DNA of 64,000 nt, from sequence record OR670491; one strand, written 5' to 3'. The position numbers and the translations under genes were made by a program. This document shows positions 19,471 through 38,549 of the stretch, one piece after another. Source of the stretch: Escherichia phage vB_EcoM_JNE01. The notes under the pieces are model-generated. The model was not told the origin of the DNA and made no database searches. It saw only the letters and a program-made list of their open reading frames with translations. Position 1 is the stretch's first letter, and every line of letters starts with the position of its first letter.

Positions 19471-19496
19471 ATTTTAAAAGTATTTGTAGAAAGTAC

Positions 19497-19556
19497 TTGC
19501 ACAGTACTGATAAAAGCGTATAATGTTTTACATCGAGAGCGGGAACTCTTCCCGCT
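19497..19556 (+). promoter_or_regulatory. early promoter (TTGCAC-N16-TATAAT) + 5' GC-rich stem-loop (agcggga...tcccgct)
   Basis: first copy of the recurrent promoter/5'-hairpin module. Confidence 0.6.
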
Positions 19557-19579
19557 ACACTTTAAGAGAGATTAATACG

Positions 19580-19942
19580 ATGGCGACTCAAATCACTAAA
19601 ATCATTGCTAACCTGGTTAACTTCCGCGACGATATGAAAGATCTTCCGGCGGCAACGGTTAAAACTCACATTGACGCATACCGCGAACTGATTAAAATGC
19701 TGCCGCTTAAGCGTGAACAATACGCCGCCACCGTGATGCTTGATGCGATGATCCATAAGATGATCGCCAGTGATTTAACGATGGCTTATCAGTATATGGG
19801 TGAATTGTTCGCGGTGTATAGTAAACCAGTACCAGGAATGGAAAGTACAGAAGTATTACACGGTTTAAATTTAAAACAAGATGCATGGGATAATATGCCT
19901 CGTTTCCTGGTATGGGCTGACAGTGGCAAAATTTACGAATAA
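19580..19942 (+). CDS. hypothetical early protein
   Basis: track ORF starts at 19523 inside the promoter; ATG MATQITK preceded by AAGAGAG RBS is at 19580. Confidence 0.55.
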   Translation: MATQITKIIANLVNFRDDMKDLPAATVKTHIDAYRELIKMLPLKREQYAATVMLDAMIHKMIASDLTMAYQYMGELFAVYSKPVPGMESTEVLHGLNLKQDAWDNMPRFLVWADSGKIYE

Positions 19943-19955
19943 GTTAAAAATTAGT

Positions 19956-20014
19956 TTGACAGTACTGAATAAAAGCGTATAATGTTTTACATCAGGTGGG
20001 GAATAGTTCCCCAC
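19956..20014 (+). promoter_or_regulatory. early promoter (TTGACA-N16-TATAAT) + 5' stem-loop (gtgggga...tccccac)
   Basis: read directly; module immediately upstream of gene 20035. Confidence 0.6.
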
Positions 20015-20034
20015 TATATAAGAGGATTAAAAAA

Positions 20035-20274
20035 ATGGCTAAATCAAAAATGTTCTTAGGTCACAAAAATAAAACTCATTGGAATGTAAGCCTTTGGATT
20101 AATAACGATGAGGGATTGTATCGGTTGGCCCAGGACTTTATTAACGATAGCACTAATCGCAATGATGCGGCCCGTCATATGATGTTATTTTTAGAACAGA
20201 CTGGACAAGATAAAACACCGGACGGATTCAAATATAGCACTACTGCGATCCGTGCGGCAATGGTAGGAATGTAA
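20035..20274 (+). CDS. hypothetical early protein (paralogue of 22076..22315)
   Basis: start MAKSKMF after GAGG RBS; shares GHKNKTHWNVSLWINN...TPDGFKYSTTAIRAAMVGM with 22076..22315. Confidence 0.6.
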   Translation: MAKSKMFLGHKNKTHWNVSLWINNDEGLYRLAQDFINDSTNRNDAARHMMLFLEQTGQDKTPDGFKYSTTAIRAAMVGM

Positions 20275-20360
20275 TAGAATATATTTAAAGTACTATCATT
20301 TTTTTGCGATAGTACTTTATAATAGTGTTTTATTCATACACCAACGATAAGGGCAACAGC

Positions 20361-20627
20361 ATGAATATTAAGTATTTTGCGACGCGTGAACAAGCTCGGA
20401 TCGCCGCTCGCCAGGACGGGGCAACGTTTAAAGATATGGGCGTACAATCGGAACGTGGTAAACGTTGGGCCATTGTAAAGCGTAGTACCGCCAGATCATT
20501 ACAGTACTGGTTAGCGGCCTTAAAAAGTCCCGATAGTGTATCGCGTCGAGTGGTAGAAATAAAGCTCGACCGAAAGGGCAACCGCGTGACCGTGTACCGT
20601 ACTAAAAAGATAGCAGTACTTGAATAA
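20361..20627 (+). CDS. hypothetical early protein (paralogue of 32830..33225)
   Basis: shares FATREQAR...TFKDMG...GKRWA...RKGNRVTVY with 32830..33225; internal ATG of track ORF chosen. Confidence 0.5.
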   Translation: MNIKYFATREQARIAARQDGATFKDMGVQSERGKRWAIVKRSTARSLQYWLAALKSPDSVSRRVVEIKLDRKGNRVTVYRTKKIAVLE

Positions 20628-20633
20628 AAAGTA

Positions 20634-20700
20634 CTTGCAAACTATGTTTAATGGCGTATAATGTTTTACATCGAGAGCGGGAACTCTTCCCGCCTATAAC
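20634..20700 (+). promoter_or_regulatory. early promoter + 5' stem-loop (agcgggaactcttcccgc)
   Basis: acttgcaaactatgtttaatggcgtataat then hairpin. Confidence 0.6.
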
Positions 20701-20714
20701 CTGGAGTAATAAAA

Positions 20715-20945
20715 ATGACTAATATGTATATGACTGAAGTTAAAACCGTAAAAGATACTACCACGAATAAAACTACTTACTTACAGCGGATCTGCGGTGT
20801 ATGGCAACGTATCAGCAAATCAAAGTACTTTAAATTAACATCATATGCAAATCGTTCGGATTCATTCAGTACTGAAATAAAAGGTAATAAAGTACACCAA
20901 TACGGCACTTATTATTATTACAGCCTGGACGCGATTGCAGTATAA
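20715..20945 (+). CDS. hypothetical early protein
   Basis: ORF from track with GGAG RBS. Confidence 0.5.
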   Translation: MTNMYMTEVKTVKDTTTNKTTYLQRICGVWQRISKSKYFKLTSYANRSDSFSTEIKGNKVHQYGTYYYYSLDAIAV

Positions 20946-20977
20946 GCAGTTTACAAATCTTTACAATTGCCGGTATT

Positions 20978-21005
20978 GACTTATTTTGTCAGTACTGGCA
21001 TAATG
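20978..21005 (+). promoter_or_regulatory. promoter (TTGACT-N17-CATAAT with upstream TG) reading into the CCCATAGGGTGC box
   Basis: ttgacttattttgtcagtactggcataat; box at about 21031. Confidence 0.5.
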
Positions 21006-21009
21006 TATT

Positions 21010-21165
21010 CATTGGCAGATAAGCCGTAGCCCATAGGGTGCGGGAGTGTATCTATAGAAAAATTAGTTTAGTATAGTTACAATTGTGCACCCGGTGGGTT
21101 AGCTGTTGTCATGGGGTATATTATGCCAGTACTTGATAATTCTGTCAATACTTTTTTTTTACTAT
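21010..21165. ncRNA. candidate convergently transcribed non-coding locus (plus- and minus-strand promoters facing each other across inverted CCCAYMGGGTGC boxes)
   Basis: plus promoter at 20978-21005; minus promoter at 21120-21148; no ORF; boxes at about 21031 and 21090 form an imperfect long inverted repeat; T9 run at about 21155. Confidence 0.3.
21120..21148 (-). promoter_or_regulatory. minus-strand promoter (TTGACA-N17-CATAAT)
   Basis: reverse complement reads ttgacagaattatcaagtactggcataat. Confidence 0.45.
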
Positions 21166-21189
21166 TCAGTACTGAAAACTATTTTTAAA

Positions 21190-21345
21190 AAGTACTTGCA
21201 AACTATGTTTAAAGGCGTATAATGTTTTACATCAGGACGGGGAACGAAATAAGTAACTTCCCGTTAAGTAGCCCAGGAGTAAGGCACACGAAAAACTCCC
21301 CTGATAAAATAGTTTGACAAATGTTTTTAAAAGCGTATAATACTT
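21190..21345 (+). promoter_or_regulatory. tandem early promoters separated by a conserved about 90-nt leader (caggacggggaacgaaataagtaac...aaaaactcccctgataaaatagtttgacaa)
   Basis: two TTGxxx-N16-17-TATAAT promoters; the leader between them recurs at about 31632-31760 and partially at about 23925-24010. Confidence 0.5.
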
Positions 21346-21373
21346 ACATCAACTACTGAATGAGGGTTACAAA

Positions 21374-21985
21374 ATGAAAACTATCACTACTACTACTTTC
21401 GTTATGGATTTTTCTGAATTGAACGCAGAACAACAAACGTCAGCTATCGAACTGGTTCGGGATCGTGAGCGTTCATGTGAGGATAATTTCTTTGCTGAGG
21501 GCGTTATCGAGTACTATAAAGAAACAGTACTACCAGAATACGGCATAGATGAAGCTGAATTGCAATACAGTGGTTTTTGGTCGCAAGGTGACGGTGCATC
21601 AATCAGTACTGACAGCGTGGACGCAGTGAAGTTTTTACGCAAGATTAAAGCGTTAACGAAATATCGTTCTATCCGTCACTTGTTGAATGAAGATGATTTG
21701 GCAATGAGTGTAGAACGTTCACACTCTCGCTACGCACACGAAAACACGGTAAGCGGGTACATTGAATCGGCTTACACTGATTTAACCGCAAAACAAGAAA
21801 CGTTAGTTAATGAGCTTGAGGAACTACTCACTGATACTATTCGTGAATTGTCCCGCAAGTTGTACCGTGATTTAGAGAATGCATATGAGGATCAATTCAC
21901 TACTGAAAACATTACGGCACTGATTGAGGGTAACGAATATCAATTCAATGTTATTGATGGCGTAGTGGAATCAATCGAATATTAA
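21374..21985 (+). CDS. hypothetical acidic protein
   Basis: 203-aa ORF with GAGGG RBS; strongly acidic composition. Confidence 0.55.
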   Translation: MKTITTTTFVMDFSELNAEQQTSAIELVRDRERSCEDNFFAEGVIEYYKETVLPEYGIDEAELQYSGFWSQGDGASISTDSVDAVKFLRKIKALTKYRSIRHLLNEDDLAMSVERSHSRYAHENTVSGYIESAYTDLTAKQETLVNELEELLTDTIRELSRKLYRDLENAYEDQFTTENITALIEGNEYQFNVIDGVVESIEY

Positions 21986-22075
21986 TTTAAAAAGTACTTG
22001 CAAACTAAGTTTAAAAGCGTATAATACTTTATATCGAGGCGGGGAGTGGTTCCCCGCTCAAACGAGGATTTAAAA

Positions 22076-22315
22076 ATGGCTAGTACTAAAACTTACAACG
22101 GACACAAAAACAAAACTCATTGGAATGTAAGCCTTTGGATTAATAACGGTGAGTCATTGTATCGGCTTGCTCAAAGTTGCATCGCACAAAGTAGAACTAA
22201 AGATATTGCTGCGGAATGTATGTACCGCAGATTAAAAGCCAACGGTACTACTACAACGCCGGACGGCTTTAAGTATAGCACTACTGCGATCCGTGCTGCA
22301 ATGGTTGGAATGTAA
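22076..22315 (+). CDS. hypothetical early protein (paralogue of 20035..20274)
   Basis: start MASTKTY after promoter/hairpin module; conserved block shared with 20035..20274. Confidence 0.6.
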   Translation: MASTKTYNGHKNKTHWNVSLWINNGESLYRLAQSCIAQSRTKDIAAECMYRRLKANGTTTTPDGFKYSTTAIRAAMVGM

Positions 22316-22372
22316 TATTCAGTACTGAGATAATGGCGGGTAATAGTTCCCGCCTTTACTGAGGGTTATCTA

Positions 22373-22633: not shown

Positions 22634-22719
22634 AAAAGTACTTGCAATTAGTTTTCAGTACTGTATAATGGTTTACATCAAAGGGAGAAATGGTTCTCCC
22701 TGGTAATGAGGAAAATAAA

Positions 22720-22941
22720 ATGGCTAATATCACTACTCTTTCCCAACTGGAAGCACTGGTGAAATCTATGCGGGAACATGCCGACAAAATCGGCGTACAA
22801 GATCCAGCCGTTTGCTTCTGCGACGAATTGAATGATGATACCCTGGTAATAGCAGAAGTCCAGGACGTTTCTAACTATTCCTCGCGTTACACTGGCGGCG
22901 TAGCAAATAAAGGCGACTTCTGTTTATACCTTACAAAATAA
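22720..22941 (+). CDS. hypothetical early protein
   Basis: start MANITT after promoter + gggagaaatggttctccc hairpin; track ORF starts upstream at 22690. Confidence 0.55.
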   Translation: MANITTLSQLEALVKSMREHADKIGVQDPAVCFCDELNDDTLVIAEVQDVSNYSSRYTGGVANKGDFCLYLTK

Positions 22942-23076: not shown

Positions 23077-23184
23077 CAACTATTTTTCAAATACTTTTTA
23101 TTAAAATACTTGCAATTAGTTTTTAAACGCGTATAATGTTTTGCATAGGGGGAGCGGTTCCCCTGGTAACTAAGGAATAATAAA

Positions 23185-23421
23185 ATGCTTGAACAAATCA
23201 AATCAACGTCTGCGAATGTAACGGGAACGGTATCACACTTTACTAGTGATGAATCGCGTGGTGTTCCTTATTGTGCTGTACATGTAAACACTGATGGCAA
23301 CTACTGGTTTACGGTTTACGGATCATATTCATTTGGACGGCCAGGGCATCAAAAAATTCTGGATAAAGTACAACCAACGGGTAAAAATATCACTGCCGAA
23401 ATGTTTTATAAAAAATCATAA
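23185..23421 (+). CDS. hypothetical early protein
   Basis: ORF from track, preceded by promoter + ggggagcggttcccc hairpin. Confidence 0.55.
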   Translation: MLEQIKSTSANVTGTVSHFTSDESRGVPYCAVHVNTDGNYWFTVYGSYSFGRPGHQKILDKVQPTGKNITAEMFYKKS

Positions 23422-23505
23422 AGTACTTGCAATTAGTTTTTAGTACTGTATAATATTTTACATCGCAAGGGGAAACGGTTTCCCCTGGTAACTAAGGATA
23501 ATCAA

Positions 23506-23805
23506 ATGAAAGTTGCAATCATCGCCCTGGCTTTATCTGTATCGTCTTTCGCTGTTAACGCTTCCGTTGATGTACCGCGTGAAAAATTCATTCAGTGCAC
23601 TGTTGCAATGACTAACGAGGAAACGGCTGAGATTGTTACCAAATCCCTGGAACTGGCCCCTGCAATGTTTGCTAATGGCCCGTACCATGAAGAAGATGAT
23701 CAGGGTAGCACGACCATCTATTACGATGCAAAAAGTAAACGCGGTTCAGTTACTGTAATGGATACTGAGAAAGTTACATTCACGGGAGTAATTAATTGTT
23801 TTTAA
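23506..23805 (+). CDS. secreted or periplasmic hypothetical protein (N-terminal signal peptide)
   Basis: MKVAIIALALSVSSFAVNA-SVD: basic start, hydrophobic core, AxA-type cleavage motif. Confidence 0.6.
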   Translation: MKVAIIALALSVSSFAVNASVDVPREKFIQCTVAMTNEETAEIVTKSLELAPAMFANGPYHEEDDQGSTTIYYDAKSKRGSVTVMDTEKVTFTGVINCF

Positions 23806-23850: not shown

Positions 23851-24035
23851 ATTGTAGTACTGAATACTTTAAAAATAGTTTTGAAATAGTAGTTGACATT
23901 ACCAGGGAAAGGCGTAGAATGTATTACATCAGGACGGGGAACACTAAGTAGACCGCCAGTAAGTCGAACGAAAAACTGGACACGACCTGGAAACTTTGAT
24001 AAACTAACTTACACTTTAATTGAGGAATTAAAAAA

Positions 24036-24563: not shown

Positions 24564-24790
24564 GTGTTTATCGTTTACCAGGCCACCAGCACCGCCTAGA
24601 AACGATTCTAACGCATTAAACTGATTATCTGATGCATTGCCCTAGCTGGTGGCGTTAAGGCTGTAAGAACGCGATTGAGAGCGTTTAAAGTATTTTGCAA
24701 AAAGTAATAAAAAGTACTTGCACGATTAAGAGATTAGCGTATAATTAATTACATCAAGGCAAGACACCTTAACTAACTGAGGATATAAAG

Positions 24791-24943
24791 ATGAATACTT
24801 ATGACCTGGATTGTTTTACTTTACAAGTAATGTCAGTATGCAGTAAGAAAGATTGGTCATCAAAGGAATTTAAAGCAGTTATCGCGTGTGCAAAACACGG
24901 CAAGACTATCAATGAAACGGCATCAATCATTGATAAACTTTAA
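24791..24943 (+). CDS. small hypothetical protein (50 aa, below ORF-track cutoff)
   Basis: hand-translated ORF downstream of promoter aaaagtacttgcac...gcgtataat with GAGGA RBS. Confidence 0.4.
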   Translation: MNTYDLDCFTLQVMSVCSKKDWSSKEFKAVIACAKHGKTINETASIIDKL

Positions 24944-24951
24944 AAAATAGT

Positions 24952-24980
24952 TTGACAATAGTTTTAAGTACTGGCATAAT
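24952..24980 (+). promoter_or_regulatory. early promoter (TTGACA-N17-CATAAT with upstream TG)
   Basis: ttgacaatagttttaagtactggcataat. Confidence 0.6.
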
Positions 24981-25012
24981 ACATACATCAACTACTGAAT
25001 AGGAATTAAAAA

Positions 25013-25240
25013 ATGGCTATTATCATTACTCGCGTATCTGGTACTACTGGCAACGAACAAGTAGTTGCAGTCATTACCAACAAGGAAGGTGCGGAATTGC
25101 AAAATGCAATGAATACCTGGGCCGTTAATGAGTTCGGTCAGTGGGCAAGTGTAGCATACATTGAAACCTATCAAGTGCCGTCGATTAGTTTAACTGATTT
25201 GGGCGTTGAGCGTATCCTTTGCCTGGATGAATTAAATTAA
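25013..25240 (+). CDS. hypothetical early protein
   Basis: ORF from track; AGGAA RBS. Confidence 0.55.
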   Translation: MAIIITRVSGTTGNEQVVAVITNKEGAELQNAMNTWAVNEFGQWASVAYIETYQVPSISLTDLGVERILCLDELN

Positions 25241-25325
25241 AAAAGTACTTGCAAAGTAAATCGAATAAAGTATAATACATTACATCAAGGGGAGAAATGG
25301 TTCTCCCCACTACAAGGAAACTAAA

Positions 25326-25469
25326 ATGAAAACTTGTCAATGTGGTCATAAATCTATTACGGGTTTTAAGCGGGGCGTTGCTCTTTGCCAGTACCATTAT
25401 AATTTACAAGTATGGGGTAAAGAATGGGCCGACCAGGTGGAAGCAGCAAAGAAAGCAAAAAGTAAGTAA
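25326..25469 (+). CDS. small cysteine-containing hypothetical protein (47 aa)
   Basis: hand-translated ORF after promoter + ggggagaaatggttctcccc hairpin; CQCGH...CQYH pattern suggests possible metal binding. Confidence 0.4.
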   Translation: MKTCQCGHKSITGFKRGVALCQYHYNLQVWGKEWADQVEAAKKAKSK

Positions 25470-25557
25470 AATATTATCACAGTACTATTGACATAGTTTG
25501 ATAGTACTGGCATAATAGATTTTATCAAGACAACATATTAATTTAAGGAATACAAAA

Positions 25558-25881
25558 ATGGCTAAAACTATCATTAACACCGTTTCCCTGGCTGCAATCC
25601 GTGCAATCAATGTTGACGGTAAACGTTGGACTGATACATATGGCAATACTTATCATTCTTGTCATGTAAGCGTTGAACTGGATAACGGTTTGAATGATCT
25701 GGCGGTTGAATCATTTACTTATGGCTATGAAGATGCATATCAACAAACGGCGTTAGATCTATTAAAGGAATCAGTAGACGGGCTTAATACTGATGAAACC
25801 TCCCTTACTCGTTTGTGCAATGATCTTAATATCCCGTTGCATTGTACTGTACAGAATGTTAAACGCAAAAAAGATCTTTAA
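25558..25881 (+). CDS. hypothetical early protein (paralogue of 32407..32730)
   Basis: shares RWTD..GNTYHSC.VS...TFTYGY...VKRKKD with 32407..32730. Confidence 0.6.
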   Translation: MAKTIINTVSLAAIRAINVDGKRWTDTYGNTYHSCHVSVELDNGLNDLAVESFTYGYEDAYQQTALDLLKESVDGLNTDETSLTRLCNDLNIPLHCTVQNVKRKKDL

Positions 25882-30822: not shown

Positions 30823-30840
30823 CACTAAGAGGAAAGAAAA

Positions 30841-31467: not shown

Positions 31468-31575
31468 GAAAAAGGGATTGACTCCGGTCAGTCCCTTTGT
31501 TATTATATACGCATAGAAACAAATTAGCCCACCGGGTGCATAAATGTATCTATTGTTTGCTGGTGGCTAGTACTG
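31468..31575 (+). promoter_or_regulatory. repeat module: hairpin gggattgactccggtcagtccc with embedded -35, TATTAT -10, CCCACCGGGTGC box, Chi octamer
   Basis: copy of the 27451-27560 module; GCTGGTGG at about 31559. Confidence 0.5.
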
Positions 31576-31631
31576 AAAACTATTTTTAAAAAGTACTTGC
31601 ATTGTACTTAGAATCAAGTATAATGTTTTAC

Positions 31632-31760
31632 ATCAGGACGGGGAACGAAATAAGTAACCCCGTTAAGTAGTCCAGGAGTAAGACATACGAAAAACTCCCC
31701 TGATAAAATAGTTTGACAATAGAAAGTAAACGAGTATAATACTTACATCAACCACTGATA
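31632..31760 (+). promoter_or_regulatory. conserved about 90-nt leader between tandem promoters (copy of 21228-21345)
   Basis: caggacggggaacgaaataagtaaccccgttaagtagtccaggagtaagacatacgaaaaactcccctgataaaatagtttgacaa. Confidence 0.5.
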
Positions 31761-31773
31761 AGGAAACATAAAA

Positions 31774-32049
31774 ATGCGGATTCTACTGACAGCTAACGAA
31801 ATCGAACAAGTACTGACTACTAATCTGGAACAATGGAAACGTGAAGCAGATATCCAGGCGGTTCAATGCCTTAACGATAAGTTAACGCCAGATGACTTAA
31901 GCACGATTGTTGATCCACAATTTTATGAAGATATTCACGACACGTCTTTAAGCGTCGAGGATGTACTTGATAAGCACTACATTGATACTGATTTACATGT
32001 TTACGGTCGTAAAAACTTTATCACTATTCACGACATTTACAATACTTAA
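31774..32049 (+). CDS. hypothetical early protein
   Basis: ORF from track. Confidence 0.55.
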   Translation: MRILLTANEIEQVLTTNLEQWKREADIQAVQCLNDKLTPDDLSTIVDPQFYEDIHDTSLSVEDVLDKHYIDTDLHVYGRKNFITIHDIYNT

Positions 32050-32052: not shown

Positions 32053-32110
32053 TTGACAAAGTATCTTAGTACTGTATAATAGTTTACATCAAGGGGGGGA
32101 ATGGTTCCCC
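32053..32110 (+). promoter_or_regulatory. early promoter (TTGACA-N16-TATAAT) + 5' stem-loop; module duplicated at 32322-32380
   Basis: ttgacaaagtatcttagtactgtataatagtttacatcaaggggg...ggttcccctcc; duplicate differs only in G-run length. Confidence 0.6.
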
Positions 32111-32135
32111 TCCTAACTAAAAGAGAGAAATAAAA

Positions 32136-32318
32136 ATGGCTAAGTGCACTATCTGTAATAAAGAAATAGTATTAGTTCCAAGTGCCCGTGAACGTGCCGC
32201 TCGGTTCGGTGGCAAAGCGTCAGACTATACAAAAATGTTTACTACCCATACAGCTTGCCAGGTAGCAAAACGTTCACAAGAAAGCGTAGAATTAATGCGT
32301 AAACTTTCCAAAAAATAA
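32136..32318 (+). CDS. small cysteine-containing hypothetical protein
   Basis: ORF from track; CTICNK...HTACQ pattern. Confidence 0.5.
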   Translation: MAKCTICNKEIVLVPSARERAARFGGKASDYTKMFTTHTACQVAKRSQESVELMRKLSKK

Positions 32319-32321: not shown

Positions 32322-32380
32322 TTGACAAAGTATCTTAGTACTGTATAATAGTTTACATCAAGGGGGGGGGAATGGTTCCC
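32322..32380 (+). promoter_or_regulatory. early promoter + 5' stem-loop (duplicate of 32053-32110)
   Basis: read directly. Confidence 0.6.
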
Positions 32381-32406
32381 CTCCTAACAAAGAGAGAGAA
32401 ATAAAA

Positions 32407-32730
32407 ATGGCTATGATCCTTACCCAGAAAGTAGAACTGAAAATTGTAACCTCCTTTGACATTAAAGTTAATCGGTGGACTGATAGCCACGGCAATACTT
32501 ACCACTCCTGCTACGTGTCCGCATTGATTGGTGATCGCTGGGAAGACCTGGGACACGAAACCTTTACATACGGTTACGGCACACAAGGCGAGTACACGGG
32601 TTTAGAAATCATTAAGGAAACTGTAATAGGTTTCAACCCGAAAGAGAAAGTACTACACAGAATTGAGAAAGAGATCAACAAAGAAATTACAGTTCGCTAC
32701 TACGATGTAAAACGTAAGAAAGACATGTAA
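32407..32730 (+). CDS. hypothetical early protein (paralogue of 25558..25881)
   Basis: conserved block shared with 25558..25881. Confidence 0.6.
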   Translation: MAMILTQKVELKIVTSFDIKVNRWTDSHGNTYHSCYVSALIGDRWEDLGHETFTYGYGTQGEYTGLEIIKETVIGFNPKEKVLHRIEKEINKEITVRYYDVKRKKDM

Positions 32731-32829
32731 TAGAATCCATTTAAAGTACTATTTGACATTGCCCAGATAGTACTTTATAATAGACTCTAACTTGTAGTAC
32801 TAATTAACTTAACTAATAGGATGTACACC

Positions 32830-33225
32830 ATGATTACTAAATTCTTCGCTACCCGTGAACAAGCTCGCATCGTTGCCCGTGAGGAAGGTGAAACATTTAA
32901 AGACATGGGTAAAGATTCTCCTACTGGTAAACGCTGGGCGGTACAGTTCAAAGAGATCTCTGATATTGTGAATTCACCTGAGCCTGTACTTACAGCAGCA
33001 GAACTAAAGCAAGCTCAAGAACTGGCTGAAGTACTGAACGCTCAAGATGACTTCTTGAAAGGTTCTGATATTGAAGTTACAGTTAACGCAAATGCATGGA
33101 CTCACGCGGATCACCTGGCAAACCTTAAGCGTCCAAGTGAACTGATTCGTAACCAGAAAGAGATCCGTCATGACCGTAAAGGAAACCGTGTTACCGTATA
33201 CAGTAAACGCCGCCAGGTTATCTAA
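32830..33225 (+). CDS. hypothetical early protein (paralogue of 20361..20627)
   Basis: conserved FATREQAR / GKRWA / RKGNRVTVY blocks; start may instead be 32821. Confidence 0.5.
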   Translation: MITKFFATREQARIVAREEGETFKDMGKDSPTGKRWAVQFKEISDIVNSPEPVLTAAELKQAQELAEVLNAQDDFLKGSDIEVTVNANAWTHADHLANLKRPSELIRNQKEIRHDRKGNRVTVYSKRRQVI

Positions 33226-33289: not shown

Positions 33290-33544
33290 ATGATTAAGGT
33301 TCAACTATATAAAGATAACATCTTACGGGTACACTATAAAGCACCTCAGAGAATCATCACAAAGGCCGTACAGCTTGCTAATGAGTTTATTAATGGTAAC
33401 CTATTACCTAGGAAGTTAAGCAACGGGAAACTGCGTGTAATCGACGTGGACACTAACAACAGGATAGTAATCGAGAACACAGGAAAGATAAACCTTTATG
33501 AGCATCAACAATACAATAAGAAAATAAAACTAATATCACGTTGA
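33290..33544 (+). CDS. hypothetical early protein
   Basis: ORF from track. Confidence 0.5.
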   Translation: MIKVQLYKDNILRVHYKAPQRIITKAVQLANEFINGNLLPRKLSNGKLRVIDVDTNNRIVIENTGKINLYEHQQYNKKIKLISR

Positions 33545-33597
33545 CAGTACTCAATTGTTTTAGTACTATGTACACATACCAACACGGGAGAAACAAA

Positions 33598-33816
33598 ATG
33601 AAATTATCTAAAATCGAAAAGAAAACTATTGATGAAGCAGTTAAGCACGGTTATACCTTTCGTAATGATTCACATTTTACCAATTTTCAACAAGGGTATC
33701 GTACTATTAAAAAACTAATTGACAAAGGTTTATTAGTTGAAGTCAATAACGGTAACGGTATCGAGTATCAACCAACACAGGACGCATTTTATTTTAAGAA
33801 ATATAATATTATCTAA
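33598..33816 (+). CDS. hypothetical early protein
   Basis: start MKLSKIEKK after promoter ttgacagtactcaattgttttagtactat; track ORF 33541..33816 begins inside the promoter. Confidence 0.5.
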   Translation: MKLSKIEKKTIDEAVKHGYTFRNDSHFTNFQQGYRTIKKLIDKGLLVEVNNGNGIEYQPTQDAFYFKKYNII

Positions 33817-33874
33817 TTGACAGTACTCAAATGTTTTAGTACTATATGTACATACCAACACGGGGGGAAACAAA

Positions 33875-34117
33875 ATGATTACTTTAGAAAAACGTATCAA
33901 AGAAACTACATCGCTGGTGGAACTGTTAACAGTACTCAAATGTAAAACAGCACCATTCAGCACGCCGGACTTTATTAATATGGTTGATGTTAATGGTCGC
34001 TATCGTATCACGGTCGAACAAGGAGCGGCGAAAGTATTCAGTACTAAAAACACGAAGGAAGTGATCCACGCCGTTAATGTTAAAAAAGTAGTTGCCATTG
34101 ATAGTAAAGTACTGTAA
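33875..34117 (+). CDS. hypothetical early protein
   Basis: preceded by a near-identical copy of the 33541-33597 promoter/leader. Confidence 0.55.
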   Translation: MITLEKRIKETTSLVELLTVLKCKTAPFSTPDFINMVDVNGRYRITVEQGAAKVFSTKNTKEVIHAVNVKKVVAIDSKVL

Positions 34118-34148
34118 TATAGTTTCATTAACTCAAGGAGATCATGCA

Positions 34149-34733
34149 ATGCGTAATTATACAAAATTCATCCGTACACTGTCAGAAATGGAAACCAACA
34201 AAGAGATCCTTTCAGCTTGTCGGTTAGCTGACCTGGAGATCATCGGTGCTGGTTCTTCCCGTATAGTTTTCGCTTTAAATGATCGGTTAGTGATTAAGGT
34301 CGCGAATTGTGATGCGGGTGTAGAACAAAATGAAACTGAATGTAAGGTATGGAATTTTTTAGACTATGACCGCCCTCAGTTGAAACAGTACTTTGCAAAG
34401 GTGCATATGCATTTATGCGATCCTGATAATATGTTTATCGTTATGGATCGGTTGAGTACTGCAAGCAAAGGCAGTGTGAAGCACGTAAACGCGTGCAATG
34501 AATTAAAGTACAATATTAAACGTAATGCAATCGAACGCCAGCACCGCTTTGCTGATGCACTACAACACGTTGATGATACATTATCAACACTAACGATAAG
34601 AGATATCAGAAAACAGAATATCGGCCAGGATCGTAATGGACTTATTAAAGTACTTGATTACGGTTTAACCAGCAATATCTGGAATCAGTACTATAAAAAG
34701 CGTGATGTGGCAGCAAGTAAGGTAACACGATAA
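34149..34733 (+). CDS. putative minimal protein kinase-like protein
   Basis: ordered kinase-like motifs: glycine loop IGAGSSRIVF, lysine in VIKVA, catalytic-loop-like IRDIRKQNIG, DFG-like VLDYG; start MRNYTKF after AAGGAG RBS. Confidence 0.5.
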   Translation: MRNYTKFIRTLSEMETNKEILSACRLADLEIIGAGSSRIVFALNDRLVIKVANCDAGVEQNETECKVWNFLDYDRPQLKQYFAKVHMHLCDPDNMFIVMDRLSTASKGSVKHVNACNELKYNIKRNAIERQHRFADALQHVDDTLSTLTIRDIRKQNIGQDRNGLIKVLDYGLTSNIWNQYYKKRDVAASKVTR

Positions 34734-34740: not shown

Positions 34741-34850
34741 TAAAAAAAGGGATTGACTCCGGTCAGTCCCTTTGCTATTATATATCCATTGAGAGATAAC
34801 TCACTGACCCATAGGGTGCGGAAGTGTATCTATTATATAAGTATTCAGTA
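34741..34850 (+). promoter_or_regulatory. repeat module: hairpin with embedded -35, TATTAT -10, CCCATAGGGTGC box (copy of 27451-27560)
   Basis: gggattgactccggtcagtccctttgctattatat...gacccatagggtgcggaagtgtatc. Confidence 0.5.
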
Positions 34851-34955
34851 CTGAAAACTATTTTTAAAAAAGTACTTGCATTGTACTTAGAATCAAGTAT
34901 AATGTTTTATATCGAGAGGGGGAAATGGTTCTCCCTGGCAATAAGGAATAAAATC

Positions 34956-35177
34956 ATGACTACAATGACTTGCATTTACGCTTCCAATCGTCTGAATGAT
35001 GCGGCCTTTAATGTTGATTCAGAATATCAATGTTATCGGGATGAAAATAAAAAAGTTTTTGTAGTTGATAATAATGGTTTCCATATTGAATTACAATCCG
35101 GCTTCACTGGTGTTGATGGTAAATCAGTATGGGGCGTACAGGATGATAAAGGCACATATCATTTTAAACGTAATTAA
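34956..35177 (+). CDS. hypothetical early protein
   Basis: start MTTMTCIY after promoter + gggggaaatggttctccc hairpin; track ORF begins upstream at 34824. Confidence 0.5.
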   Translation: MTTMTCIYASNRLNDAAFNVDSEYQCYRDENKKVFVVDNNGFHIELQSGFTGVDGKSVWGVQDDKGTYHFKRN

Positions 35178-35180: not shown

Positions 35181-35240
35181 TTGACAAAGTATATCAGTAC
35201 TGTATAATAGTTTACATCAAGGGGAGAATAGTTCTCCCCG
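35181..35240 (+). promoter_or_regulatory. early promoter + 5' stem-loop; module duplicated at 35672-35740
   Basis: ttgacaaagtatatcagtactgtataatagtttacatcaaggggagaatagttctcccc present twice. Confidence 0.6.
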
Positions 35241-35260
35241 ATACTAAAAGGAATAAAATC

Positions 35261-35665
35261 ATGACTACTACTAATCTTGCTCGGAATATCGCCAACGATA
35301 AAAATCATGCTGCAATGGTTGTTGGTTACATTGAAGCTATGCAATTCAGTACTGTACACAATGAGAACGGCGATTACCTGGAAGATTATGAATTATCAGA
35401 GCAAGCCCATCAAGCGGCAGTGATTGCATGTTCTCGCTTCATTGAGAAACACGGTAATGATCTGGAAGTAGTTCGCGGTATGTTTATTGATTACGGTTAT
35501 GAGCAAGCTGGTCATGATCTGTTCCTTACCCGCGAAGGTCACGGAACTGGTTTTTGGGATCGTGGTTTAGGTCACTATGGCGATGTATTCACGAAGTACT
35601 GCGAAGAAATCAACGTTTGCGATCCCTATGTAGGCGATGATAATCTAATCTATATGGGCGAATAA
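35261..35665 (+). CDS. hypothetical early protein
   Basis: ORF from track. Confidence 0.55.
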   Translation: MTTTNLARNIANDKNHAAMVVGYIEAMQFSTVHNENGDYLEDYELSEQAHQAAVIACSRFIEKHGNDLEVVRGMFIDYGYEQAGHDLFLTREGHGTGFWDRGLGHYGDVFTKYCEEINVCDPYVGDDNLIYMGE

Positions 35666-35671: not shown

Positions 35672-35740
35672 TTGACAAAGTATATCAGTACTGTATAATA
35701 GTTTACATCAAGGGGAGAATAGTTCTCCCCGATACTAAAA
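35672..35740 (+). promoter_or_regulatory. early promoter + 5' stem-loop (duplicate of 35181-35240)
   Basis: read directly. Confidence 0.6.
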
Positions 35741-35752
35741 GGAAACAAAATT

Positions 35753-36025
35753 ATGTCCAGCTACTCCGCTACTATGATCATTAAAGATATGAACGGTAAT
35801 CCTACTTCTGCTGGTGGATCATTTGGAAACATTAATTTAGATGGTCGGTTATCCATGCAATCAGCAATCGATGCAGCGAAAGAAGTTTTTAAGAATGAAT
35901 GTACTGTTAGTAAGCTGGATTATATGGGATTTGCTATCGAAAAAACTAATCGTTTTGTGGACTACAAAAAACCACTGATGATTGATACTAACCTGAAAGC
36001 AAACGAAGTGGAGTACTTATTATGA
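35753..36025 (+). CDS. hypothetical early protein
   Basis: ORF from track. Confidence 0.55.
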   Translation: MSSYSATMIIKDMNGNPTSAGGSFGNINLDGRLSMQSAIDAAKEVFKNECTVSKLDYMGFAIEKTNRFVDYKKPLMIDTNLKANEVEYLL

Positions 36026-36213: not shown

Positions 36214-36299
36214 AAAGTACTTGCATTGTAGTTAGATTAACGTATAATGTTTTACATAGAGCGGGGGAATAGTTCTCCCGCCAGTCCAGGAGATACACC

Positions 36300-36563
36300 A
36301 TGAACACTATCGAAATCACTATCAATGCACACGTATACGACAACGTAATCATGCAAACTACTATGACCGCTAATGATACCAGTACTTTGCGGAATACTGT
36401 TATTAGTGCTGTATGTGCCGCTATCGGTGATGTCGCCCTGGAAAATGCAAAACACGTAAACGATGGTTTCACTATGTGCAAACGTGATAACGCAAAACAT
36501 ATCATCGTGGAAGGTTACGGCGGTGTAGAATTTAATGTTTATATGAAAAAAGTACTTGCATAA
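36300..36563 (+). CDS. hypothetical early protein
   Basis: ORF after promoter + gcgggggaatagttctcccgcc hairpin. Confidence 0.55.
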   Translation: MNTIEITINAHVYDNVIMQTTMTANDTSTLRNTVISAVCAAIGDVALENAKHVNDGFTMCKRDNAKHIIVEGYGGVEFNVYMKKVLA

Positions 36564-36630
36564 TAACTAAAACAAAGTATAATGTTTTGCATAGGGGGAG
36601 ATATCCTCCCCCACTAAAAGGAGTAATAAA

Positions 36631-36855
36631 ATGGCTAACTTTGATGAACTGATGCGGGAAGTAGCTAACCTGGCAGAAGAGAAGAAATCATTCGATTCTA
36701 TCTATAACACCGCTCACCGTGATTCAGTACTGGCATGTAACCAGGATCAAAAAGATGAACTAATCGCCACCTATCATGAAGCATGGAAGTACTACCGACA
36801 ATGGGAGAAAGAAGAAAGTGAGTCTACCATTGACGGCCTCAATAATCTAATCTAA
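36631..36855 (+). CDS. hypothetical early protein
   Basis: ORF after promoter + gggggagatatcctccccc hairpin. Confidence 0.55.
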   Translation: MANFDELMREVANLAEEKKSFDSIYNTAHRDSVLACNQDQKDELIATYHEAWKYYRQWEKEESESTIDGLNNLI

Positions 36856-36931
36856 AAGTTTTATTTCAGTACTATTGACATAGCTTGATAGTACTGATGT
36901 AATAACTTTACTAACTACAAGGGGAAACATA

Positions 36932-37189
36932 ATGGATCAGTTCACACAATATCGGGTAAATCATCAAGCTATGGCCTACGTAGAAGACCATAAAACGTTA
37001 CCAGTACTGCAACCAGTTAAAGGCCATATCTATCGTGCAATGTCGTGGTGTACGGCCCAGGATGGCTATAAAACCGTAGCCGTTGGTATGTATTGCGGTA
37101 ATGGTGAATGGTTTGATCCAAATAATCCGGTAGCCATTGACAGTACTGAAAAAATGAAATGGGCCGACTACATCGAAGATATTTCATAA
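36932..37189 (+). CDS. hypothetical early protein
   Basis: ORF from track after ttgacatagcttgatagtactg promoter. Confidence 0.5.
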   Translation: MDQFTQYRVNHQAMAYVEDHKTLPVLQPVKGHIYRAMSWCTAQDGYKTVAVGMYCGNGEWFDPNNPVAIDSTEKMKWADYIEDIS

Positions 37190-37206
37190 AAACTATTTGA
37201 CAGTAC

Positions 37207-37265
37207 TAACCAGTAATGTATAATGTTTTACATAGAGCGGGGAATAGTTCTCCCGCCAATAGTTT
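37207..37265 (+). promoter_or_regulatory. early promoter (TTGACA-N16-TATAAT) + 5' stem-loop (gcggggaatagttctcccgc)
   Basis: read directly. Confidence 0.6.
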
Positions 37266-37278
37266 GGAGTAAAACATT

Positions 37279-37479
37279 ATGTCTATCGCTATCGCCCTGG
37301 TTGAAGTACTGAAAGAAGCTAAAGCCAACCAGATCGACGTAAAGATCCAGGAACTACAAAACGGCTTAATCGGCTGTACTTGTACCGCTGGTGGAGCGGC
37401 AGACTATCGAGAACACGAATCACTCGAATCACTGGTTCGGTATCTTACCATGATCGTTGATGATTGGAGAATCATCTAA
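37279..37479 (+). CDS. small hypothetical protein
   Basis: ORF from track. Confidence 0.5.
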   Translation: MSIAIALVEVLKEAKANQIDVKIQELQNGLIGCTCTAGGAADYREHESLESLVRYLTMIVDDWRII

Positions 37480-37486
37480 CAAAAAA

Positions 37487-37625
37487 AGAATAAAAAAAGG
37501 GATTGACTCCGGTCAGTCCCTTTGCTATTATATACGCATAGACAAAAACTAGCCCACAGGGTGCATAGGTGTATCCAAAATATATAGTTAATAACGGTGA
37601 GTAACTATCTGCTGGTGGAACTAAA
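37487..37625 (+). promoter_or_regulatory. repeat module: hairpin with embedded -35, TATTAT -10, CCCACAGGGTGC box, Chi octamer
   Basis: copy of 27451-27560 module; GCTGGTGG at about 37611. Confidence 0.5.
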
Positions 37626-37643
37626 ACTATTAATAAAAAAGTA

Positions 37644-37672
37644 TTGACAAAGTATATCAGTACTGCAATAAT
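37644..37672 (+). promoter_or_regulatory. early promoter (TTGACA, variant -10)
   Basis: ttgacaaagtatatcagtactgcaataat. Confidence 0.5.
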
Positions 37673-37725
37673 GTATCTCGTAGGGCGGCAATGGTGCGAC
37701 GGCCCACAAAGTTAGGAGATTCAAA

Positions 37726-38058
37726 ATGACTACTTCAATCGCTATCGTTAAAGCTTTCATCCGTACTAATGTTTCCTCTGTATTCATCGACGGCCTCGAC
37801 CGTAACGTAGAATACTCAATCATTATCGCACAAACGGCAAACGGTTCTCGGTACATCCTGAATGATAGTGAAGCAAATCACTACTACTTCACTAAAGCCA
37901 CTGGCTTTAAACGCATCGATGCTGATGTAGTATACGCTAAGATGAATAAGCTGGTAGACAAGATTAACGCTAAAGGTACTATAGATTTACAGTACTGGAC
38001 CGAAACCGATCCAGAATATGGATCTCACCGCTACCTGAATCCAGGTATCAAAATGTAA
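37726..38058 (+). CDS. hypothetical early protein
   Basis: ORF from track. Confidence 0.55.
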   Translation: MTTSIAIVKAFIRTNVSSVFIDGLDRNVEYSIIIAQTANGSRYILNDSEANHYYFTKATGFKRIDADVVYAKMNKLVDKINAKGTIDLQYWTETDPEYGSHRYLNPGIKM

Positions 38059-38147
38059 AAAGTACTTGCATAGTACTTAGATTCATGTATAATGTTTTAC
38101 ATAGAGAGGGGGAAATGGTTCTCCCTCCTAAATTAAGGAGTATTGTC

Positions 38148-38549
38148 ATGACTTTTTCTATCAATTCTTATGCTGACGTTTTAGTACTGGCTCGGACTTT
38201 TGGTAAAGATGCACTGGAGTACGCTGTAAGTAATGGCACTATCCAACCGGAACAGTGCCGCATCATTGGAAACTGCAAACGTTGGGCGGTTTCCAATACT
38301 ATTGCACTGGAAAACTTCCACGATGGCAACAATGAATATTCTGTTGATGTAGTATTCGAAGCCGTTGATCTCGGCGGTATCTATAATACTAACCTGAATG
38401 ATGTGCGTATCGTTCGCACTGGGTTCGGTGCTTATGATGTATCTATTCGTGAAGCTATGAACACCGGATACATTAGCAAGGACTTACTTGCTCACATCAT
38501 GCAGCTGTGTACGGAACGTAACGAAGCACGCACTATCTTAGGACTGTAA
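38148..38549 (+). CDS. hypothetical early protein
   Basis: start MTFSINSY after promoter + gggggaaatggttctccc hairpin and AAGGAG RBS; track ORF begins at 38085. Confidence 0.55.
   Translation: MTFSINSYADVLVLARTFGKDALEYAVSNGTIQPEQCRIIGNCKRWAVSNTIALENFHDGNNEYSVDVVFEAVDLGGIYNTNLNDVRIVRTGFGAYDVSIREAMNTGYISKDLLAHIMQLCTERNEARTILGL

Follow-up and report, generated by a model that had tools for sequence, protein, structure and literature searches.

A PeSL-like early-expression cassette with a predicted 5′ untranslated hairpin, repeated in the probable terminal repeat of Escherichia phage vB_EcoM_JNE01

Promoter-early stem-loop (PeSL) cassettes are known from the T4-type phages RB49/phi1, PST and nt-1 (PMC2839356; PMC4122927), in which a consensus sigma-70 promoter with an A/T-rich upstream stretch is combined with a poly-G/poly-C stem-loop and a ribosome-binding site (RBS) and precedes a small ORFan gene (PMC2839356). 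The G-tract/C-tract stem-loop of phi1/RB49 lowered the expression of a downstream lacZ gene like a strong terminator, and the native PeSL promoters could not be cloned because of their strength (PMC2839356). Recombination between PeSL cassettes has been invoked to explain how RB49 and phi1 gained and lost genes relative to each other, and the crossover of an RB49 mini-circle was mapped inside the loop of a PeSL stem-loop (PMC2839356). Here we describe a stretch of 64,000 nucleotides of Escherichia phage vB_EcoM_JNE01 (OR670491), hereafter called the window and representing 64 kb of a roughly 350-kb genome, in which many early genes are preceded by a sigma-70 promoter followed by a GC-rich hairpin in the predicted 5′ untranslated region (UTR).

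Stabilising stem-loops at the 5′ terminus of the Escherichia coli ompA and papA mRNAs were reportedly described by Emory, Bouvet and Belasco in 1992. In ompA, protection is provided jointly by the hairpin and by ribosome binding, and the leader of phage T7 gene 10 also has a 5′ stem-loop formed by a G-run and a C-run (GGGAGACCACAACGGUUUCCC); stabilising hairpins of this ompA/papA/T7 type begin 0–2 (at most 4) nt from the 5′ end. RaK2-like phage genomes have been described as using the host polymerase together with phage sigma factors (PMC5259590; PMC11895373), and in the RaK2-like phage CBB a MEME search identified 18 RpoD-like promoters with an UP-like element (PMC5259590). CBB belongs to the same phage group as the phage studied here, and its promoters are similarly concentrated before short hypothetical genes and lie partly inside the terminal repeat, whereas the words "stem-loop" and "hairpin" do not occur in the main text of that paper (PMC5259590). 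Promoters and hairpins are not mentioned in the genome papers on fEgEco12 and Sharanji (PMC13070987; PMC11895373), and our searches of the open-access literature yielded no earlier description of 5′ hairpins close to the promoter in Asteriusvirus, RaK2-like or rV5-like phages.

Pattern scans revealed a dense series of near-consensus sigma-70 promoters (TTGACA, TTGCAA or TTGCAT, 16–17 nt, TATAAT) on the + strand between 18125 and 38066, and almost none on the − strand. Between 19.4 and 38.9 kb, 48 such promoters were found on the + strand, along with 52 predicted genes of at least 40 amino acids; 39 of the promoters sit 15–75 nt upstream of a predicted gene, and the remaining nine precede non-coding repeated elements. 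The early promoters match 10–12 of the 12 consensus positions, and most have aaaaagtac or aaaaatagt upstream. About two thirds of the gene-linked promoters (25 of 39) bear a GC-rich hairpin, comprising 23 clean copies and the imperfect copies at 30764 and 37644 (Table 1), and the other 14 have short, unstructured leaders of 18–43 nt. Throughout the 25 modules, the stem begins 8–14 nt past the −10 hexamer (mode 12) and the hairpin is separated from the ATG by 17–23 nt, being located 6–12 nt upstream of the Shine-Dalgarno sequence. In 23 of the 25 modules, −35 and −10 are 16 nt apart; the optimal spacer in E. coli is 17 nt. A preliminary description of this DNA had counted roughly forty modules, one per early gene, a number that agrees with the gene-linked promoters only and is too high for the hairpins. 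Its order of elements, a TTGACA-type promoter with a 16–17-nt spacer and TATAAT followed by a GC-rich stem-loop and the RBS, was found in many copies, and its distance of 6–9 nt between TATAAT and the hairpin has to be lengthened to the values given above. Many promoters of hairpin modules also have a TG flush against TATAAT (..AGTACTGTATAAT), and a class of CATAAT promoters has a true extended −10 (TGgCATAAT) and never occurs with a hairpin.

The association between promoters and hairpins is far beyond chance. Over the whole window, 24 of the 61 GC-rich hairpins on the + strand start 8–15 nt after a promoter-like −10 hexamer, compared to none of the 54 on the − strand and to a chance expectation of about 0.4 (61 hairpins × 55 promoters × 8 positions / 64000); counted among family-like hairpins only, 24 of about 28 are promoter-linked. 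A covariance model of the hairpin, run with filters off against both strands of the 64 kb, gave no match outside 19.5–38.2 kb. When the region 17–40 kb was compared to Rfam 15 at a permissive threshold, the only match was a chance-level one to rli48 (E = 0.83, 25.7 bits against a gathering threshold of 100).

Comparison with other phages gives good support to the view that the hairpin is an RNA element of the 5′ UTR, under both purifying and compensatory selection. The comparative set comprised 102 copies with 62 unique hairpins from seven sources, namely the window, 121Q, G17, EJP2, the terminal repeat of the Klebsiella phage fENko-Kae01 (from a clade different from that of the window phage), RaK2 (Alcyoneusvirus), and the 142-kb Vequintavirinae phage A73. 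As a MAFFT alignment of the raw modules put the stems out of register because of differing loop lengths, it was replaced by a loop-anchored, N-padded alignment of 71 unique rows from six sources, with RaK2 left out; six rows still shifted in this alignment were scored as unpaired, which is conservative. Across the 71 rows, 81% of the alignment cells are paired and nine of the ten stem pairs have double-sided changes, with stem positions 4, 6, 7 and 8 from the loop alternating between G-C, A-U, C-G and U-A. The covariation analysis, which had been proposed as a check in the preliminary description, gave a score of 0.335, compared to 0.174 ± 0.011 in shuffles (0 of 500) and at most 0.185 with the partners slid.

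The loops are 3–6 nt long and of more than 20 different sequences (including UGG, AUGG, UAG, CGG, ACAUC and CAC) and the stems span 6–12 bp, the 25 modules of the window having G-run/C-run stems of 6–10 bp. Within Asteriusvirus, the stem base GGG...CCC and the A-U closing pairs are strongly conserved. In RaK2 the layout is kept with quite different stems, such as GGGGATACA/TGTATCCCT and GGGAATGAA/TTCATTCCC, the inner stem being altogether different there and different in part in A73. In all 102 copies from the seven sources the stem starts 7–15 nt after the −10, and this same layout holds in the fENko-Kae01 clade, RaK2 and A73, where both promoters and stems differ in sequence. The earlier claim that the stems vary yet stay complementary is thus upheld. 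Internal non-Watson-Crick pairs were counted with all mismatches penalised alike, as an earlier G.U count had been biased by the scoring scheme, and G.T was found 16 times against two cases of A.C, the pattern expected for a folding + strand RNA. Variable spacing between the half-sites, together with their covariation, is hard to reconcile with a fixed protein site in duplex DNA, and along with the varied loops and stems and the G.T excess this supports the RNA structure favoured in the preliminary description over such a DNA site.

Differences per site over 47 orthologous module pairs were lowest in the −10 hexamer (0.011), followed by the stem arms (0.059–0.076), the loop (0.127), the spacer (0.128) and codon position 3 (0.175). 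The stems have changed 2–3 times more slowly than synonymous sites and loops, a sequence pattern which indicates that they are under purifying selection. The hairpin is confined to the early block and is common to RaK2-like jumbo phages and rV5-like phages.

Several points weigh against reading these data as an RNA fold. The hairpins have predicted energies of −10 to −18 kcal/mol and leave the RBS open, but their single-copy fold z-scores are modest (−1.3 to −3.4) because a G-run/C-run composition folds easily, so that the case for structure rests on comparison. In that comparison, duplication and recombination relate the copies to one another, so that the covariation counts do not represent independent events, and the best pairing served as the anchor of the alignment. 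The G.T cases, many of which share one position, are likewise not independent of each other. Moreover, a G-run/C-run palindrome is the same on both strands, so the strand call rests on the G.U excess and context; the G-rich arm always being 5′ was rejected as strand evidence, as the palindrome reads identically either way.

The preliminary description placed the stem-loop at the extreme 5′ end of each transcript, as expected for protection from 5′-end-dependent decay. The conserved initial sequence reads gttttACATC and is shared by hairpin-less promoters; with a start 7–8 nt after the −10 and a purine favoured, the predicted +1 is the A at position 8. With this +1, the 71 unique copies would have 0–1 unpaired 5′ nucleotides in 11 cases, three in 17, four in 14, five in 22 and six in seven, so that a terminal position is predicted for 11 copies and a leader of 3–6 nt for 60 (about 85%). 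The stem offset from the −10 is never under 7–8 nt, from which we infer that this is approximately the closest a GC-rich block can approach +1 outside the polymerase-melted region. The modules resemble the ompA, papA and T7 leaders in having a sequence-tolerant stem-loop near the 5′ end and then an efficient RBS, and the dependence of the ompA/papA type on structure rather than sequence has its structural counterpart here in the covariation and in the differing stems across genera; in contrast to that type, most of the copies are predicted to have the longer unpaired leader just described.

Decapping and cleavage preferences bear on this point, since RppH and RNase E require at least two unpaired 5′ nucleotides and prefer at least three, and a truly terminal stem-loop blocks RppH (PMC8833179). 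With a predicted leader of 3–6 nt RppH and RNase E should be able to bind, so a classical 5′ shielding of the ompA type is not expected for most copies. A simple stem-loop is also a negligible obstacle to RNase E scanning (PMC11194081), and an obstacle of this kind, considered as a rescue of 5′ protection, was rejected on the grounds that a simple orthogonal stem-loop barely hinders the enzyme (PMC11194081). Together with the 14 gene-linked promoters of the block that lack a hairpin, and show that one is not required for early expression, these are arguments against a stabilising role. In its favour, the predicted nucleotide 2 is a U in 69 of the 71 copies and RppH disfavours a pyrimidine at this position (PMC8833179), and short unpaired stretches are cut poorly by RNase E (PMC11194081). 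The leader would consist of the 3–6-nt tail, the hairpin and some 20 nt that an initiating ribosome would cover, and this scarcity of unpaired RNA likewise favours stabilisation. A stabilising function of the hairpin thus appears plausible, weakened by the predicted leader length, and the claim of protection from 5′-end-dependent decay stands in part: the U at nucleotide 2 and the small amount of free leader agree with it, and a tail that suits RppH and RNase E does not. The alternative offered in the same description, a common signal for early-gene shut-off or processing, may hold instead.

The stretch resembles the Asteriusvirus jumbo coliphages (PBECO4/121Q/G17 group), with 88–96% identity in mosaic pieces and with CMSTMSU, G17, phAPEC6, fEgEco12, 121Q and PBECO4 among the matched relatives. 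In relatives with determined ends, the matching stretch lies 2–10 kb from the left end, within the annotated direct terminal repeat; such repeats in Asteriusvirus-type relatives are 20.7–21.5 kb long, as defined experimentally or by PhageTerm (PMC13070987; PMC11895373). Similarity to most Asteriusvirus records begins at position 17547 of the window, which corresponds to approximately 21.5 kb before the record end in BAU.Micro_ELP-22 (a complete record), and the matches to G17 and 121Q end at 38.9–39.1 kb. From the start of homology, its map distance and the ends of these matches, the region 17.5–38.9 kb is probably a direct terminal repeat with approximate boundaries, its right edge at 38900 being taken from the ends of high-scoring segment pairs. 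Every promoter-hairpin module falls inside this putative repeat, which is packed with small + strand genes.

Like the PeSL cassettes of T4-type phages, the modules combine, within one intergenic cassette of about 100 bp, an RBS, a stable G-tract/C-tract stem-loop containing G-T pairs and a consensus sigma-70 early promoter preceded by an A/T-rich stretch. In both, the cassettes are positioned upstream of small genes of unknown function in plastic regions where breakpoints of indels and replacements fall in the cassettes. The placement of the stem differs. In 25 kb of phi1 examined with the same script, stems lie between −35 and −10 or wrap the −10 (−25 to −6 or −16 to +5 relative to the −10 end), so that they extend at most 5 nt past the −10, which puts them upstream of the start site and outside their own transcript, and a terminator or attenuator role, acting on transcripts that arrive from upstream, has been assigned to them; the stems of the window start 8–14 nt after the −10, in their own 5′ UTR, and have no U tract. 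The hosts of the cassettes differ as well, being RaK2-like jumbo phages and rV5-like phages here, with the cassettes concentrated in a long terminal repeat. Similarity in sequence between cassettes of the window group and phi1 PeSLs is marginal (35 nt, E ~3e-4). Judged by these likenesses, the best account of the modules would be a PeSL-like early expression cassette with the stem-loop shifted into the 5′ UTR, the T4-type PeSL being the closest known kind.

A PeSL-style stem, upstream of or overlapping the −35 and −10, was found in the window only in composites at 20968, 27453, 31471, 34746 and 37496. In these a 12–13 bp stem-loop engulfs the −35 (AAAGGGATTGACTCCGGTCAGTCCCTTT..TATTAT; 27453–27480, 31471–31498, 34746–34773 and 37496–37523, also 20968–21000), giving a classical terminator/promoter layout that forms part of a ten-copy element described below. 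A near-identical early-promoter leader, CATCGAAACGAGATAC, was also seen in fENko-Kae01 and the T4-like phi1 (35 nt, 86% identity, E ~3e-4), at 1223–1290 of sequence L001 and at about 9474–9508 and 10251–10284 of L006 (phi1), and the RBS GGAGAATCAAAATG recurs in phi1 and in the window (27055). The shared leader and RBS hint at a common or convergent early leader across families.

Signs of exchange are frequent at the modules. Of 30 ends of long collinear matches to 121Q, 20 lie within module spans that cover 28% of the region. For the gene at 22373, G17 and 121Q have a full promoter-hairpin module, and in the window another sequence takes the place of the promoter half and meets the hairpin precisely at its 5′ edge. 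A single promoter half is found at both 34876 and 31597, each time in front of a different downstream part. Orthologous genes in different phages can have hairpin-bearing or hairpin-less modules (e.g. gene 25013 compared to A73). Phage A73 shares seven genes, modules and an element of about 85 nt at 74–88% identity, and one module matches several 140-kb rV5-like phages at 90–96%.

Other known hairpin types were considered as identities for the element. Intrinsic terminators are similar in their GC-rich stems of 7–10 bp and short loops, and the same stem family is followed by a T run at 33249 and 22946, but the module hairpins are located downstream of a promoter and followed by A-rich sequence; an intrinsic terminator was rejected because the 8 nt after the stem contain 0–3 T (mean 1.6) and no U tract. 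For comparison, the terminator-like hairpins at 22946, 23822, 24537 and 33249 have 6–7 T in 8 nt. N4-type hairpin promoters have a 5–7 bp stem, a 3-nt loop, fixed bases (purine −11, G −10, G −8) and a start about 11 nt downstream of the loop centre (PMC4496689). This identity was ruled out by loops of 3–6 nt with many sequences and covarying stems of 6–12 bp. Promoters of this type also go with a single-subunit RNA polymerase that the phage encodes and packages in its virion. Lambdoid nut sites contain a boxB with a conserved purine-rich pentaloop and a 5-bp stem, paired with boxA, and a boxB-like antitermination hairpin was dismissed as the loop is variable and mostly of 3–4 nt, with no conserved boxA-like partner. 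RNase III needs roughly 20 bp, for which the 7–10 bp stems are too short.

Our preferred interpretation, which we hold tentatively and place just short of probable, is one of early cassettes in which the 5′ UTR hairpin is a post-transcriptional stabiliser or insulator and which double as recombination points. Compact early-expression cassettes would be transcribed by the host sigma-70 RNA polymerase, each comprising an A-rich upstream stretch, a near-consensus −35, a 16-nt spacer, TATAAT, an A/U-rich ACATC start, a 7–10 bp G-run/C-run stem-loop in the mRNA, an unstructured, A-rich RBS region of about 20 nt and the start codon. The hairpin would most likely act post-transcriptionally: together with an initiating ribosome over the 17–23 nt to the ATG it would leave almost no single-stranded leader for RNase E, it would prevent pairing between leader and RBS, and in read-through transcripts from upstream promoters it could halt 3′ exonucleases. 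As DNA, the repeated cassettes may be recombination points shuffling small early genes, as proposed for T4-type PeSLs. An unlikely alternative is that the hairpin matters mainly in such read-through, polycistronic transcripts, as a 3′-exonuclease barrier protecting the upstream cistron after an endonuclease cut or as a processing landmark, its closeness to the promoter being a by-product of the compact cassette. Read-through from the 48 promoters is expected given the small number of T-run terminator-like hairpins in the block (some five, with a further four or five PeSL-type composites), the orphan hairpin at 22335 was retained after promoter loss, and RNase II and PNPase are known to be stalled by stems of this kind, with −10 to −18 kcal/mol. 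A purely intercistronic role would nevertheless not require the tight −10 offset of 7–15 nt, kept in four lineages with unrelated promoters and stems, and of about 28 family-like hairpins 24 are linked to a promoter. We regard as slightly less likely again an attenuator of the PeSL type, in which pausing or weak termination at the stem-loop damps transcription, both that arriving from upstream and that of its own very strong promoter, and thereby limits the dose of possibly toxic early genes; the lacZ effect and the unclonable native promoters of phi1/RB49 (PMC2839356) and the T-run members of the same stem family at 33249 and 22946 are in line with it, whereas the module hairpins have A-rich tails with at most 3 T in 8 nt and no U tract, and are downstream of their own start, unlike in phi1, where the stem ends at most 5 nt after the −10.

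That the hairpin marks 25 of 39 early genes is reminiscent of a regulon, and an RNA-binding protein or nuclease of phage or host might recognise it and co-regulate this half of the early genes, e.g. by timed translational repression, cleavage or factor-dependent termination at the early-to-middle switch. The strongly conserved GGG...CCC stem base and A-U closing pairs within Asteriusvirus and the location 6–12 nt before the Shine-Dalgarno sequence would suit such an operator, yet the loop varies in sequence and length, the inner stem is entirely different in RaK2 and partly so in A73, no Rfam family matched and no candidate binding protein was identified; this explanation is decidedly improbable. 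It is very improbable that the inverted repeat has no function as RNA and is kept as a recombination substrate or template-switching hot spot travelling with the promoter cassette: breakpoints do cluster at the modules, one of them exactly at a hairpin edge, and the RB49 mini-circle crossover fell within a PeSL loop (PMC2839356), but this would not account for stems evolving 2–3 times more slowly than synonymous sites and loops, for compensatory changes and the preponderance of G.U over A.C, or for a position kept across genera despite different sequences. We give hardly any credence to a DNA-level element, whether a palindrome at +5 to +25 that serves a dimeric repressor as operator or an N4-like promoter in the form of an extruded cruciform or hairpin. 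Repressor operators typically lie immediately downstream of the start site, as this hairpin is predicted to do, and many copies with 3-nt loops and 7–9 bp stems superficially resemble N4 early promoters; however, the half-site spacing varies from 3 to 6 nt or more, the half-sites covary and are not conserved, G.T pairs would count as mismatches for one strand only, and N4 promoters require a 3-nt loop with fixed bases (PMC4496689). The sites described here already have consensus sigma-70 promoters.

A wider and unlikely proposal is that the hairpin serves as an address tag for a mobile expression cassette which unrelated families of large coliphages have in common (RaK2-like, rV5-like and, distantly, the T4-type PeSLs) and defines a post-transcriptional regulon, in which a phage-encoded or phage-modified factor would stabilise, cleave or terminate these transcripts at the early-to-middle switch or exempt them from phage-induced decay of host mRNA.

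The hairpin-bearing modules, the orphan hairpin and the gene-linked promoters without a hairpin are collected in Table 1. Few of the early proteins have a recognisable domain, and those detected are a DksA/TraR zinc finger, a GNAT acetyltransferase and a weak kinase-like protein.

Table 1 Features of the early-gene block of the window. Promoters are given as −35 hexamer, spacer length in nt and −10 element.
Feature	Position	Strand	Promoter	Hairpin	ATG	Remarks
Early-gene block, probable ~21-kb direct terminal repeat	17547–38900	+				Homology start and ends of high-scoring segment pairs; boundaries approximate
Promoter + 5′ hairpin	19497–19582	+	TTGCAC-16-TATAAT (19497–19524)	19538–19556 AGCGGGAActcTTCCCGCT	19580	
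Promoter + 5′ hairpin	19956–20037	+	TTGACA-16-TATAAT	19995–20015 GGTGGGGAAtagTTCCCCACT	20035	Fold −14.2 kcal/mol, z −3.4
Promoter + 5′ hairpin	20635–20717	+	TTGCAA-16-TATAAT	20677–20693 GCGGGAActcTTCCCGC	20715	
Promoter without hairpin	21314–21376	+	TTGACA-16-TATAAT			Unstructured leader
Promoter + 5′ hairpin	21998–22078	+	TTGCAA-16-TATAAT	22038–22058 GGCGGGGAGtggTTCCCCGCT	22076	Two G.U pairs
Orphan hairpin of module family	22335–22354	+		GGCGGGtaatagttCCCGCC		No promoter at usual distance; upstream of gene at 22373
Promoter + 5′ hairpin	22642–22722	+	TTGCAA-16-TATAAT	22682–22701 AGGGAGAAatggTTCTCCCT	22720	
Promoter + 5′ hairpin	23110–23187	+	TTGCAA-16-TATAAT	23146–23165 TAGGGGGAgcggTTCCCCTG	23185	Offset 8
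Promoter + 5′ hairpin	23427–23508	+	TTGCAA-16-TATAAT	23468–23486 AGGGGAAAcggTTTCCCCT	23506	
Promoter without GC hairpin	24718–24793	+	TTGCAC-16-TATAAT			
Promoter without hairpin	24952–25015	+	TTGACA-17-TGgCATAAT			A73 orthologue of its gene (25013) has hairpin-bearing module
Promoter + 5′ hairpin	25249–25328	+	TTGCAA-16-TATAAT	25289–25308 GGGGAGAAatggTTCTCCCC	25326	Fold −13.9 kcal/mol, z −3.1
Promoter without hairpin	25488–25560	+	TTGACA-17-CATAAT			
Promoter + 5′ hairpin	26761–26842	+	TTGCAA-16-TATAAT	26801–26820 GGGGAGAAatgaTTCTCCCC	26840	
Promoter + 5′ hairpin	26990–27070	+	TTGCAA-16-TATAAT	27030–27049 GGGGAGAAatgaTTCTCCCC	27068	
Promoter + 5′ hairpin	27593–27674	+	TTGCAA-16-TATAAT	27634–27652 AGGGGAAAcggTTTCCCCT	27672	
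Promoter + 5′ hairpin	28029–28113	+	TTGACA-16-TATAAT	28069–28088 GGGGAGAAaaacTTCTCCCC	28111	
Promoter without hairpin	28352–28418	+	TTGACA-17-CATAAT			
Promoter without hairpin	28614–28688	+	TTGACA-16-TATAAT			
DksA/TraR-type zinc finger protein	29462–29719					E = 4e-9
Promoter without GC hairpin	29726–29785	+	TTGACA-16-TATAAT			Upstream of GNAT acetyltransferase gene
GNAT acetyltransferase	29783–30139					E = 4e-9
Promoter + 5′ hairpin	30143–30220	+	TTGCAT-17-TATAGT	30182–30200 AGGGGAAacatcTTCCCCT	30218	
Promoter + 5′ hairpin, imperfect stem	30764–30843	+	TTGACA-16-TATAAT	30804–30823 GGAGAGAAatgaTTCTCCCC	30841	One A.C mismatch
Promoter + 5′ hairpin	31061–31142	+	TTGCAC-16-TATAAT	31102–31118 AGGGGAAtagTTCCCCT	31140	Extendable to TCGGA..TCCGA
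Promoter without hairpin	31713–31776	+	TTGACA-16-TATAAT			Second promoter after ~85-nt element
Promoter + 5′ hairpin	32053–32138	+	TTGACA-16-TATAAT	32092–32114 AGGGGGGGAAtggTTCCCCTCCT	32136	
Promoter + 5′ hairpin	32322–32409	+	TTGACA-16-TATAAT	32361–32385	32407	Near-duplicate of 32053 module, different gene
Promoter without hairpin	32753–32832	+	TTGACA-17-TATAAT			
Promoter without hairpin	33541–33600	+	TTGACA-17-TACTAT			
Promoter without hairpin	33817–33877	+	TTGACA-17-TACTAT			
Promoter without hairpin	34092–34151	+	TTGCCA-17-TAATAT			Weaker match; upstream of weak protein-kinase-like gene
Protein-kinase-like match, weak	34149–34733					E = 0.003, under Pfam cut-off
Promoter + 5′ hairpin	34876–34958	+	TTGCAT-16-TATAAT	34917–34936 AGGGGGAAatggTTCTCCCT	34956	One G.U pair
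Promoter + 5′ hairpin	35181–35263	+	TTGACA-16-TATAAT	35221–35239 GGGGAGAAtagTTCTCCCC	35261	
Promoter + 5′ hairpin	35672–35755	+	TTGACA-16-TATAAT	35712–35730	35753	Near-duplicate of 35181 module, different gene
Promoter + 5′ hairpin	36221–36302	+	TTGCAT-16-TATAAT	36261–36281 GCGGGGGAAtagTTCTCCCGC	36300	
Promoter + 5′ hairpin	36556–36633	+	TTGCAT-16-TATAAT	36594–36612 GGGGGAGatatcCTCCCCC	36631	
Promoter without hairpin	36875–36934	+	TTGACA-17-TGTAAT			
Promoter + 5′ hairpin, bulged	37197–37281	+	TTGACA-16-TATAAT	37237–37256 GCGGGGAAtagTTCTCCCGC	37279	
Promoter + imperfect 5′ hairpin	37644–37728	+	TTGACA-17-AATAAT	~37682–37704 GGGCGGCaatggtGCGACGGCCC	37726	Fold no better than shuffles
Promoter + 5′ hairpin, last	38066–38150	+	TTGCAT-16-TATAAT	38106–38127 GAGGGGGAAatggTTCTCCCTC	38148	

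Further repeated elements were observed in the window. The palindrome AGTACT is present 307 times in the 64 kb where 21.5 occurrences are expected (about 14-fold), and CAGTACTG 61 times. It is spread window-wide at 3.4–6.7 per kb, both in non-coding DNA and, in any of the three frames, within coding sequence (e.g. 19412–19445, 21135–21175 and 2086–11055), and stands at fixed places in 40 of 49 early promoters (AGTAC/TTGCAA, TTGAC/AGTACT and AGTACTG/TATAAT); it likewise occurs in RaK2 promoters. On the − strand, AGTACT builds the stems of terminator-like hairpins (GCCAGTACT..AGTACTGGC and a T run). This distribution points to a putative signal at the DNA level.

An element with ten copies (+ strand 20976, 27460, 29137, 31478, 34753 and 37503; − strand 21148, 23076, ~18930 and 19141) consists of a strong promoter, about 25–30 nt, the invariant CCCAYMGGGTGC and a weak G.U-rich hairpin (GGGTGCAnnnnTGTATCT), and is without an open reading frame (ORF); it is also present in fENko-Kae01 and RaK2, and its copies are candidate small RNAs or DNA sites. 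The conserved element of about 85 nt (CATCAGGACGGGGAAC...CCCCTGATAAAATAG), with a consensus promoter of its own, occurs at 21230–21313, 23927–24020 and 31631–31712, and in two of the three copies a second promoter, for the next gene, is directly downstream. It is common with the rV5-like phage A73 at 84–88% identity, and its consensus fold is weak. At the probable left end of the terminal repeat, about 2 kb (17400–19500) are without convincing genes and contain, at 18125, a perfect promoter with a long structured leader and no ORF downstream of it, tandem GGCTAAAC repeats (~18590–18650), many AGTACTGAAT repeats and two − strand promoters.

If the hairpin sets the lifetime or dose of early mRNAs, the cassettes would amount to some 100 naturally occurring, covarying versions of a single compact promoter-hairpin-RBS design, from which strong and insulated expression parts could be drawn, and as the spacing to the 5′ end varies among copies they would offer a ready-made test of the distance at which a stem-loop protects an E. 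coli mRNA. The findings refine known principles and do not establish a new one. They extend the idea of modular gene shuffling by PeSLs beyond the T4-like phages, to the terminal repeats of RaK2-like phages and to rV5-like phages, two families between which genes and cassettes have visibly been exchanged, and such exchange of cassettes helps to explain the turnover of large pools of small early genes of unknown function.

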